Below are positions 13,593-17,974 of a stretch of DNA of 30,609 bases, in pieces. Location of the stretch: positions 1 through 30,609 of the IMG/VR virus record IMGVR_UViG_3300020042_001307. One strand, written 5' to 3'. The position numbers and the translations under genes were made by a program. Positions within the stretch are counted from its first letter, which is position 1; the number at the start of each line of letters is the position of its first letter. This DNA is from a virus. Its lineage: Duplodnaviria; Caudoviricetes. Below the pieces are notes generated by a model. It saw only the letters and a program-made list of their open reading frames with translations. It ran no database searches and was not told the origin of the DNA.

Positions 13593-13738
13593 TTTCCTAA
13601 CCTTTTTTTAATTAACATTTTCATGCGTTCTTCCGTATTTTTATCTTGTACAAGTAACCGTACAACTTCATCCCAGCCTCGTCTTTTAGCTACGCCTATA
13701 TACCAATCGACAAGGTAATCTTCATGCTTGTTCTTCAA
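13589..13738 (-). CDS. Hypothetical protein (~49 aa)
   Basis: Not in ORF track. TTG start (uncertain). KNKHEDYLVDWYIGVAKRRGWDEVVRLLVQDKNTEERMKMLIKKRLGK. Its stop overlaps the next ATG. Confidence 0.62.
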   Translation of the reverse strand: MKNKHEDYLVDWYIGVAKRRGWDEVVRLLVQDKNTEERMKMLIKKRLGK

Positions 13739-14105
13739 TTTGTTTTATTTTTTGGCTAATTCTTGCTCTCCATTGCTGCCAACCTTCACCTGCATAAGCC
13801 TGACAGCCGACTTCTTGCGCTTTGGCTTTGGTTAGTTCCTCACTAGAATACCAAGGCAATTCAGGTTTCTTGACCTTTTTTACTTCCATGTCTAGTTCAT
13901 CTTCCCAGCGGCCCTGATTCAACCAAGTTGCTGGATGCGGTATGTAGTCTTTTTCGGTCTGCTTTAACTTCCAATATTCAATGTGGTTAGAAAGGGCGTT
14001 AAAAGCATCTTCCTGATCGTTGTGGCTCAACCTATCCCAAGACTTTTCGGCTACTCTACGACCTTGTTTACGGGGATACAGGCTATAAAATTCAGAGAAG
14101 TTCAT
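13722..14105 (-). CDS. Stand-alone domain resembling the C-terminus of phage replication initiator / replisome-organiser proteins
   Basis: FSEFYSLYPRKQG...A...W and YIPHPATWLNQGRWEDE motifs. 127 aa, no N-terminal HTH. Confidence 0.7.
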   Translation of the reverse strand: MNFSEFYSLYPRKQGRRVAEKSWDRLSHNDQEDAFNALSNHIEYWKLKQTEKDYIPHPATWLNQGRWEDELDMEVKKVKKPELPWYSSEELTKAKAQEVGCQAYAGEGWQQWRARISQKIKQIEEQA

Positions 14106-14900: not shown

Positions 14901-14936
14901 GTCTATCTCCTATTTCACTCGATATTGAGTAATGCT

Positions 14937-14965
14937 AGTGTATTAAGTTATCTTAACTATTGCAA
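14937..14965 (-). promoter_or_regulatory. Sigma70-like promoter with operator in the spacer
   Basis: TTGCAA-17bp-TACACT on the minus strand. The spacer contains TTAAGATAACTTAA (14943-14956). Confidence 0.8.
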
Positions 14966-14989
14966 GTATTTTTTTAAGTGTCGTTTTTT

Positions 14990-15225
14990 AGTCATAGGTA
15001 TCCCAAAGGTGATAGCACCCCATCCATTCAAGATGTGTCTTGAACTAATGCTCCCGAAGGTAGTGTTCATTCGATACAAGGTTGTCTATCACCATTGTCC
15101 TTGTAACTTGTGTAGTCGCCACTCAACGCTACGGGGCTTGCTGTCAGGTGTAAACCAGCCCATGTTCTATTCCACGCCACCCAGTTAAGTGCTTAATATC
15201 GTTTGGAGTACGGCAGAAATAGAAA
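14990..15225 (-). ncRNA. Putative structured non-coding RNA (multi-hairpin, pseudoknotted, cUUCGg loop)
   Basis: No minus-strand ORF in the track. Pairings 15099-15105/15075-15081 and 15086-15093/15008-15015 (these two cross), 15065-15069/15041-15045 enclosing cUUCGg (15054-15059), 15027-15033/15038-15044, 15134-15138/15157-15161, 15165-15171/15218-15224. Confidence 0.55.
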
Positions 15226-15226
15226 A

Positions 15227-15346
15227 ACCCCTTAAGGTAGCTCTAAGTTGATCCCACTTGCTAAAAGATTCCACAACTTTTAGTAAATGCTCAAAGCTAC
15301 CCTAAAGGGTCTATTGGATTTTATACAACACAGGGATCAATCTGCC
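15227..15346 (-). ncRNA. Putative C4/P4-CI-like antisense/attenuator RNA
   Basis: 16-nt arms 15227-15242/15295-15310 enclose a 10-bp inner stem 15258-15267/15277-15286 and are followed by a U-run on the minus strand. The internal-loop 8-mer (15248-15255) is exactly complementary to an upstream site (15333-15340). Confidence 0.55.
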
Positions 15347-15349
15347 CCG

Positions 15350-15904
15350 TTAGTATAACCCAAGTCTTTCAAAATTAAAATCCCCGTGAAAGCCAAAGGT
15401 TTTAATGTTCGACAATTCACGCTCAAAACTAAAATATCGTGCCAGTTCTTCGGGGGCAAACCTTATACCTTGATTTTCTAGATATATACGGTTTAAGTGG
15501 CAAATTTGGTCATCTTCATTGTGGTCTGTGTACACAAATTCAGGGCTGGCGGTTAGTTCACAGAGCCGCTTTGAGCGTAGGCTAAAGCCACCATTGCCTA
15601 CTCGTCTACCCATAGGATGCCAATGCCATACTGCCCCAATGTAGTCATAGTCTAAAAATTGGTCGTTCCAAGCGTCAGGGTTAATAATGAATCCATCCCA
15701 TTGAACTATTAAAACAAAGTCCGTATGGATGTGTTTATGCAATTCTTGAAGGATAAATTTGTTATATGCTTGGCGGCTGTTGATTTGGGGGTCATTTATA
15801 AAGACTTCACCGCCAAAATCAAAATGTTCTTTACACCTGTTCATTGCCTTTTTAGCTTTGTCAGGTTGTACGGAATCAATACAAGCTAGGGTAATGTTAT
15901 TCAA
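15350..15904 (-). CDS. DUF5672-like protein (glycosyltransferase-like)
   Basis: VLIVQWDG...DYDYIGAVW...VGNGGFSLRSK...NEDD...FSFE...FGFH motifs. TTG start overlapping the Cro stop. Confidence 0.8.
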   Translation of the reverse strand: MNNITLACIDSVQPDKAKKAMNRCKEHFDFGGEVFINDPQINSRQAYNKFILQELHKHIHTDFVLIVQWDGFIINPDAWNDQFLDYDYIGAVWHWHPMGRRVGNGGFSLRSKRLCELTASPEFVYTDHNEDDQICHLNRIYLENQGIRFAPEELARYFSFERELSNIKTFGFHGDFNFERLGLY

Positions 15905-16118
15905 GTTCAGGCCAAATTAACCTGTAAGTGTTGGGAAAAAGCGACTTACGGGTAATTAGCCCATGCGATTCTTTTTCTAGGGTTGCAGCTAGGATTACCA
16001 GCTTATCCATTGGAATATCACCGTTTTGCCACATAGATACGGCTGGGACAGATACCCCGACCATCTTGGATACACGGGTACATCCACCCAATAATTTGAT
16101 AATTGCTGTTGCGTTCAT
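15897..16118 (-). CDS. Cro/YdaS-like HTH transcriptional regulator
   Basis: 73 aa. LGG..RVSKMVGVSVPAVSMW...IP HTH and C-terminal ITRKSLFP. First gene of a divergent arm. Confidence 0.85.
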   Translation of the reverse strand: MNATAIIKLLGGCTRVSKMVGVSVPAVSMWQNGDIPMDKLVILAATLEKESHGLITRKSLFPNTYRLIWPELE

Positions 16119-16154
16119 GTAAGGTATCTTAACTTATGTGTATCTTTTTTGCAA
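16119..16154 (-). promoter_or_regulatory. Promoter for the Cro-like gene with overlapping operator (probably leaderless mRNA)
   Basis: TTGCAA(16154-16149)-17bp-TAAGAT(16131-16126). The ATG lies 7 nt after the -10 and has no RBS. Operator variant GTAAGGTATCTTAA at 16119-16132. Confidence 0.7.
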
Positions 16155-16161
16155 ATACTTG

Positions 16162-16190
16162 TTGACTTGTGGTTTAAGTTATCTTAATAT
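16162..16190 (+). promoter_or_regulatory. Sigma70-like promoter of the rightward early arm with operator
   Basis: TTGACT-17bp-TAATAT. Exact operator TTAAGTTATCTTAA at 16174-16187. Confidence 0.72.
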
Positions 16191-17945: not shown

Positions 17946-17974
17946 TTGACAAAGTTAAGATAACTTAATATACT
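17946..17974 (+). promoter_or_regulatory. Near-consensus sigma70 promoter with operator in the spacer
   Basis: TTGACA-17bp-TATACT. The spacer contains TTAAGATAACTTAA (17955-17968). Confidence 0.88.

Follow-up and report, generated by a model that had tools for sequence, protein, structure and literature searches.

Among the described systems that come close to the element considered here is RNA II of plasmid ColE1, whose rG stretch must pair with the dC stretch of the template according to the relevant section of PMC4412123, and for which, in the passage of PMC5043065 that treats it, the trigger of persistent hybrid formation is speculative even in ColE1. Phage origins that consist of a promoter and its transcript are represented by oriF and oriG of T4 (same section of PMC4412123). 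T4 differs in encoding its own replisome, and its R-loop origins are not known to need a conserved folded RNA. Among regulatory RNAs, the CI RNA of P4 controls termination ahead of the replication functions (PMC4825925, passage on CI), and the put RNAs of HK022 include putR, some 270 nt downstream of PR, the early promoter (PMC9378689, passage on putR). How does a phage locus with an RNA in the slot behind cro compare with these systems?

The source of the locus is a freshwater phage. Its record, which is also the window, that is, the whole stretch of DNA analysed (30,609 bases, 89% complete), carries terminase, portal, Cro-like, SSB-like and exonuclease genes; the sole hint of a host is a close relative inside a Betaproteobacteria MAG, and GC skew of the window is uninformative. 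On the minus strand, where the features described below lie unless stated otherwise, cro is followed by a DUF5672 insert, a stretch of 360 bases that codes for no protein, a promoter with a palindromic operator, two genes and finally the gene for a 127-aa protein. The upstream landmark of the slot is the Cro-like repressor gene (15897-16118, 73 aa), which matches phrog_35 and, under the curated cut-off, P22_Cro (E 1.2e-6). The original prediction that the slot after cro holds an RNA is borne out, but in the window a 184-aa DUF5672 gene (15350-15904), absent in most relatives, intervenes between cro and the RNA unit. Unrelated moron genes lie between cro and the RNA promoter in L385, L523, L328 and L381 as they do in the window, and the RNA unit remains intact. 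The claimed lack of a minus-strand ORF holds as well: no minus-strand frame there stays open for more than 42 codons. An 87-aa ORF on the plus strand (14925-15188) was rejected as a gene candidate, being open for at least 75 aa in only 4 of 144 homologues and having no family match.

The RNA transcript has a predicted -10 box TATACT at 15352-15357, recognised by its conservation; the consensus scan does not list it. Most relatives carry TG-n-TATACT directly after the cro stop codon, and the window has neither the TG nor a clear -35 box. The next promoter (14937-14965; -35 TTGCAA, -10 TACACT) parts the RNA from the downstream genes and is overlapped by the palindrome TTAAG-N4-CTTAA at 14943-14956. 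The same palindrome recurs at 16119-16132, 16174-16187 and 17955-17968, overlapping three promoter regions in all. It probably serves the Cro-like protein as operator; neither a CI nor an integrase was recognised in this phage. Most relatives display a second, conserved palindrome, TAGGG-N5-CCTA, between the A-run and the operator; the window has a deletion near 14970-14985. This second palindrome is possibly a protein site adjoining the proposed origin. Metatranscriptome contigs from each of 8 of the 15 listed runs include pieces on the RNA; the runs were chosen by this stretch, 5 of the 8 also cover neighbour genes, and the contigs give no strand, ends or level.

The RNA itself, which we call type A, spans about 240 nt (14984-15227), occurs in one copy per genome and is part of a longer unit beginning near 15346. 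It comprises P1 (a lone pair and an inner hairpin), P2, P3, P4, a 2-bp cUUNGg hairpin, P6 and pseudoknots. The original prediction had picked out the stem UACAAGG (15099-15105)/CCUUGUA (15075-15081), its loop GGUGAUAG (15086-15093) with a complement at 15008-15015, a cUUCGg hairpin (15053-15060), the helix UUCAAGA/UCUUGAA (15027-15044), a G-tract (15016-15025) and an A-run (14984-14989), and all of these are present. As clues from a single sequence they stay at chance level: the fold of the region has an MFE z of -1.10, with 29 of 200 shuffles equally good, and an 8-nt complementary pair is found in 53% of shuffles. The structured element is nevertheless real in homologues, which were collected through the 127-aa protein, two RNA motifs, a divergent Cro and the SSB-like gene. 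The collection yielded 221 full-length type A copies, 66 after de-replication, of which 65 were aligned and one (L201, with its 5' part replaced) was left out.

The covariation check proposed together with the prediction reveals a conserved, covarying type A structure. The RNAalifold consensus of the 65 sequences contains 35 pairs, 20 of them with double changes. A 41-pair model is paired in 97.1% of cells, against 81.4% in shuffled alignments and 32-44% in slid controls, and double changes occur at 27 of its pairs (428 cells versus 114 shuffled, a level that 0 of 500 shuffles reach); the model was drawn from the same 65 sequences and relatedness inflates the covariation counts. Single pairs underwent up to 15 joint changes on the tree. 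The alignment holds 69 G-U cells and no A-C cells, which identifies the minus strand as the folding strand and supports the orientation originally proposed. Covariation and G-U/G-T polarity do not separate RNA from single-stranded DNA, a caveat that Weinberg 2017 raises for plasmid motifs (PMC5737381, passage on these motifs), and the structure might act as single-stranded DNA, in the manner of a primosome or single-strand origin signal. We regard this as improbable in view of the c-UNNG-g loop, the -10 box, the U-tailed terminator in front and the GNRA loop of a sister allele. Two of the proposed details did not survive the comparison: UUCAAGA/UCUUGAA is a conserved covarying helix instead of a competing hairpin, and the G-tract fails as a conserved hybrid signal, GGGGU being present in just 57 of 144 homologues. 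The UUCG tetraloop is found in 65 of 144 by a pattern-biased count, with UCCG in L621.

The novelty of the element can be judged from several searches. The window RNA matches no Rfam family, ribozymes included, at the gathering threshold or E 10, so the allele of the window is without a match, but a sister allele in the same slot is a known Rfam motif and the novelty is slightly reduced. No tRNA was found in the region, and blastn of the region gave no match among 50,697 GenBank phages, and none in plasmids. Likenesses to a group I intron, a T-loop and a tRNA, seen by eye, were discarded, as the segments concerned vary or pair elsewhere. The literature consulted holds no description of the element, pieces of which may sit among the candidates in those parts of Fremin 2023 (PMC10690425) and Weinberg 2017 that list them. 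One divergent member, GenBank MW202674.1 (L621), was reached through protein instead of blastn; in the stretch 833-1640 its annotation places tiny minus-strand hypothetical genes over the type A RNA, which scores 122 bits and carries an additional insertion at the 3' side, and it omits the plus-strand cro-like gene. Even if the origin reading developed below fails, type A is an uncatalogued RNA family of about 240 nt with a predicted two-state pseudoknot.

An all-pairs scan uncovered a crossing helix, PK1, that the original prediction had overlooked. Its 5' strand, which lies in the P3 loop (15120-15123) and reads A(G/A)UG, pairs with CA(C/U)U behind P4 (15062-15065). Every one of the 142 unique sequences can form PK1; 37 of them come from a later scan and may include the same phages; the variable pair is A-U or G-C, with 4 joint changes on the tree, and the other three pairs never vary. 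MW202674.1, a late independent find, also keeps PK1, together with the leader, cro and the operator. The pseudoknot that had been predicted is upheld in part: divergent members support a 5-bp core but not the full 8-bp helix, which is without any double change when aligned with MAFFT and frays at its outer end, where three pairs fail in 12, 8 and 11 of the 65 sequences. The core is formed by segment Y, GGUGA in the P4 loop (15089-15093), and its 3' partner Z, UCACC (15008-15012), which change together in the L166/L418 clade and in L621. The pairing reads AGUGG/CCACU in L418, with 9 perfect pairs that need a 1-nt alignment shift and belong to a single lineage, and GGUGG/CCACC in MW202674.1. An alternative partner of Y is segment X, CACC in the P2 loop (15147-15150), a direct repeat of Z; X and Y are complementary in 65 of 65 sequences, with one double change. 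Because the X:Y and Y:Z pairings are mutually exclusive, we infer a two-state switch.

Upstream of type A, a 5' leader (15313-15346) can pair with both loop and bulge of the next hairpin and is predicted to be an antiterminator strand or antisense target. The hairpin (15223-15312) is long, covaries and ends in a U-run, as befits a predicted intrinsic terminator. Most relatives share this order, with a leader of 30-40 nt and a long U-run hairpin, behind which come a single RNA allele, an A-run and then the promoter of the following genes; two loci, L525 and L526, both with allele B, are without leader and terminator. The duplex of leader and hairpin amounts to -19.9 kcal/mol in the window. Across 52 hairpins the cognate pairings average -26.1 kcal/mol versus -16.0 kcal/mol for non-cognate ones, and 47 of the 52 cognate pairs are stronger than their own non-cognate mean: leader/hairpin pairing is allele-specific. 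In the window it is the predicted best fold at a transcript length of 100-106 nt, after which the complete terminator wins. This arrangement differs from ColE1 RNA I in that the control resembles attenuation on the same strand; the promoter scan lists no plus-strand promoter at the hairpin, and no antisense promoter was found. It has likenesses to the CI RNA of P4 and the c4 RNA of P1, where the loop and bulge of a hairpin likewise have their complement in a same-strand leader. c4 is the antisense RNA of P1. The Rfam c4 model (RF01695) gives no match, and, unlike P4 CI and c4, the window has no second downstream target, possesses an intrinsic terminator and continues into an RNA instead of protein genes.

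Five or more unrelated RNA alleles can fill the slot, never more or fewer than one at a time. Among 212 unique post-cro slots, from sets selected by protein or RNA, 210 were assigned to an allele by motif (116 A, 52 B, 23 D, 17 C, 2 E), the remaining 2 being unclassified and D-like by eye, and no locus has both A and B. Of 80 loci selected by the SSB-like gene, 12 were set aside because they were too short or had no cro; an allele is present in 68 of 68 evaluable loci and a full initiator in none. Distant cro relatives, with their slots read by translation, have an initiator with a DnaB-like (L528) or primase-like (L530) gene and no RNA allele.

Allele B is the Rfam motif RF02932 (Betaproteobacteria-1), with scores of 86-108 bits against a gathering threshold of 49.4; the window itself has no match to this model at gathering (49.4 bits) or E 10, and RF02932 was not found among 150 other sampled genomes. 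Conversely, neither the model nor the profile of type A picks up allele B, and against 17 loci with B, C, D or E the model returns only fragments at E of at least 0.15 (default filters). The Rfam model covers 120 of the roughly 195 nt of allele B and is listed as an sRNA with no function given. Allele B keeps 97.7% of its 33 pairs and has two covarying pseudoknots and a GNRA loop; it resembles type A in its slot, its leader and terminator, its multiple pseudoknots, and a GGUG segment with a terminal CACC-N4 word. In L041 (2115-2426), L066 (3136-3477) and L072 (1375-1725), allele B is directly followed by an HNH endonuclease gene (Pfam HNH in L041) or another small ORF. Homing could drive the exchange of alleles. 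Allele D (L001, L022, L331) shows a covarying loop pairing of its own; the ORF behind it, 65-68 aa long and with no Pfam match, is one of two unrelated kinds. Allele E, known from 2 unique loci (L398, about 1600-1800; L402), is short and pyrimidine-rich, with a G7-TA-G6 tract that we take to resemble mitochondrial CSB II. A further allele may be seen in L522 (about 1830-2100), its 5' end weakly C-like (E 2e-4) and without Rfam match.

What replicates such phages? The original prediction noted that the only initiator-like gene lacks its DNA-binding part, and indeed the matches of the 127-aa protein (13722-14105) to initiator families (phrog_9474, phrog_270) are confined to their C-terminal third; the protein also has a small helical domain. 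Longer homologues carry HTH_36, Phage_rep_O or similar N-domains; the short form is a stable stand-alone family. In the window and in the complete relative G154, this C-terminal domain is all that was found of an origin-binding initiator. The observation that no helicase, primase or polymerase is visible also extends to G154 (33.9 kb), where none of these, nor an integrase, was found in 48 of 53 ORFs of at least 55 aa; nor did they occur among 21 further ORFs of G153 and G155. Such enzymes are therefore unlikely to be hidden in the missing 11% of the window genome. A similar stand-alone initiator C-domain also occurs in an Achromobacter prophage-like locus (L516, 5510-5940), preceded by some 400 nt in which no gene is evident and which match neither alleles A-D nor Rfam.

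The suggestion that the RNA is a scaffold or guide, making up for the DNA-binding domain that the 127-aa protein lacks, draws on the presence of both in 142 of the 148 type A loci whose downstream sequence is long enough, 6 lacking the gene nearby, and on a weak likeness of the second domain to SAP/LEM-type folds (Z about 4). Fold searches with the 127-aa model gave no clear match. The L166/L177 clade and the phage G156 keep the RNA without a detectable gene, and near-identical 127-aa proteins accompany all alleles, which weakens the suggestion to the point where we consider it very improbable. In G156, a 67-kb phage, type A heads an operon before genes for a ParB-like protein, an SF2 helicase and a Toprim primase (30 of 50 ORFs scanned). 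With a helicase and primase of its own behind it, the RNA of G156 need not be a primer.

The leading position in the G156 operon also fits a cis-acting RNA that, like put, modifies RNA polymerase for terminator read-through in place of N or Q. HK022 put shares with type A a structured RNA in the early right operon, its distance from PR is compatible with such a role, and no N- or Q-like gene was recognised in G154. It is hard to reconcile with the sizes, put being a two-stem RNA of about 70 nt and type A one of about 240 nt behind a terminator, or with the new operator-controlled promoter that follows type A at once and makes the downstream genes independent of the polymerase that made the RNA; we think this role improbable. 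An alternative way to do without an initiator is recombination-dependent replication by the phage SSB and exonuclease.

The reading that we favour is that type A is a cis-acting, R-loop-forming origin RNA of ColE1 kind, gated by an attenuator, and from the sequence comparisons we would give it an even chance of being right. One clue comes from a repeated word. The internal and 3'-terminal words of allele B share a longest stretch of 6.59 letters, compared with 4.60 ± 0.19 in shuffled pairs (0 of 2000 shuffles; 39 distinct word pairs), and their co-change includes the preceding dinucleotide. No complement of the word sits at a constant place from 220 nt upstream to 60 nt downstream, and a pooled complement control shows a small excess (5.92 vs 5.69 ± 0.10). 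Identity maintained without an RNA partner is the pattern expected if the transcript pairs with template DNA. Repeat words of allele C are concordant in 19 of 19 and could represent one lineage; allele D ends in CTATGG in 27 of 28. The base after CACC is identical at X and Z in 132 of 141 type A sequences, with about 2 shared changes only, and the repeat signal of type A is weak because CACC identity already follows from X and Z both pairing with Y. The exchange of alleles and the covariation of direct repeats lend new indirect support to the putative R-loop primer.

The comparison with ColE1 itself points in both directions. The likenesses are the absence of a full initiator, a long structured transcript and upstream RNA-RNA control (both predicted here) and an end in CTATG with an A-run; a copy of an internal tract near the 3' end is strongly indicated in allele B and weakly in type A. 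In NC_001371 (ColE1), G6 occurs on one strand at 928-933 and 1175-1180, which we take to be the rG-dC positions, followed by CCTATGG and A5. The 3' tail of type A, CCUAUG with the A-run (14984-14998), has CTAT in 114 of 142 and is a candidate zone for the RNA-to-DNA transition; CCTATGG, found in 29 of 142, is the commonest tail, and the window has CCTATGA. These tail likenesses were spotted after the fact and serve as leads only. Unlike ColE1, type A measures about 240 nt rather than 555, has no conserved G-tract and belongs to a lytic phage. The plasmid comparison gave no sequence match at E 10, and the type A model does not hit NC_001371. Type A is not a member of the ColE1 family; that it works like ColE1 RNA II has, in our view, an even chance.

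The main competitor of an origin RNA is a free, trans-acting RNA made early in infection, whether a regulator, a decoy for a protein or polymerase, or a ribozyme, with its position in the replication slot being incidental. Type A has two or more pseudoknots and numerous unpaired bases that never vary, which suggests a compact ligand-binding or catalytic fold; the RNA is bounded by its own promoter and the next one, Rfam files allele B as an sRNA, and the RNA is kept beside a primase in G156. Such an RNA leaves unexplained the one-for-one replacement by unrelated alleles, the missing replication genes and the partnerless co-varying repeat of B, and no ribozyme family is matched; we therefore find it rather unlikely.

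If type A is an origin RNA, its action might proceed as follows. The promoter at the end of cro would make the leader, and the balance between the terminator fold and leader/hairpin pairing with read-through would set RNA output. The RNA would fold during synthesis with X paired to Y, until the emerging Z captures Y and frees X; X, having the same sequence as Z, could then pair with the template strand there. The hybrid would extend through the CCUAUG/A-run tail and then either be cleaved by the RNase H of the host or persist as an R-loop. The host's Pol I and primosome would load on the displaced strand, aided where present by the 127-aa C-domain. By analogy with ColE1, the predicted persistent hybrid would open, and possibly prime, replication.

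Taken at its widest, our proposal is that of a widespread freshwater phage group without protein initiators, in which at least five unrelated multi-pseudoknot origin RNAs are swapped as cassettes behind an allele-specific attenuator, each pinned to the template via a repeated word freed by a folding switch; we advance it tentatively, at somewhat less than an even chance. If true, it would provide a function for the Rfam Betaproteobacteria-1 motif, a catalogued orphan RNA, and several unrelated RNA folds would have reached an RNA-opened origin. Natural compensatory variants would make the trigger of persistent hybrid formation testable, and the alleles would be a source of small orthogonal replicons. 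A common group of tailed phages would then replicate mainly from RNA-opened origins of the ColE1 kind.
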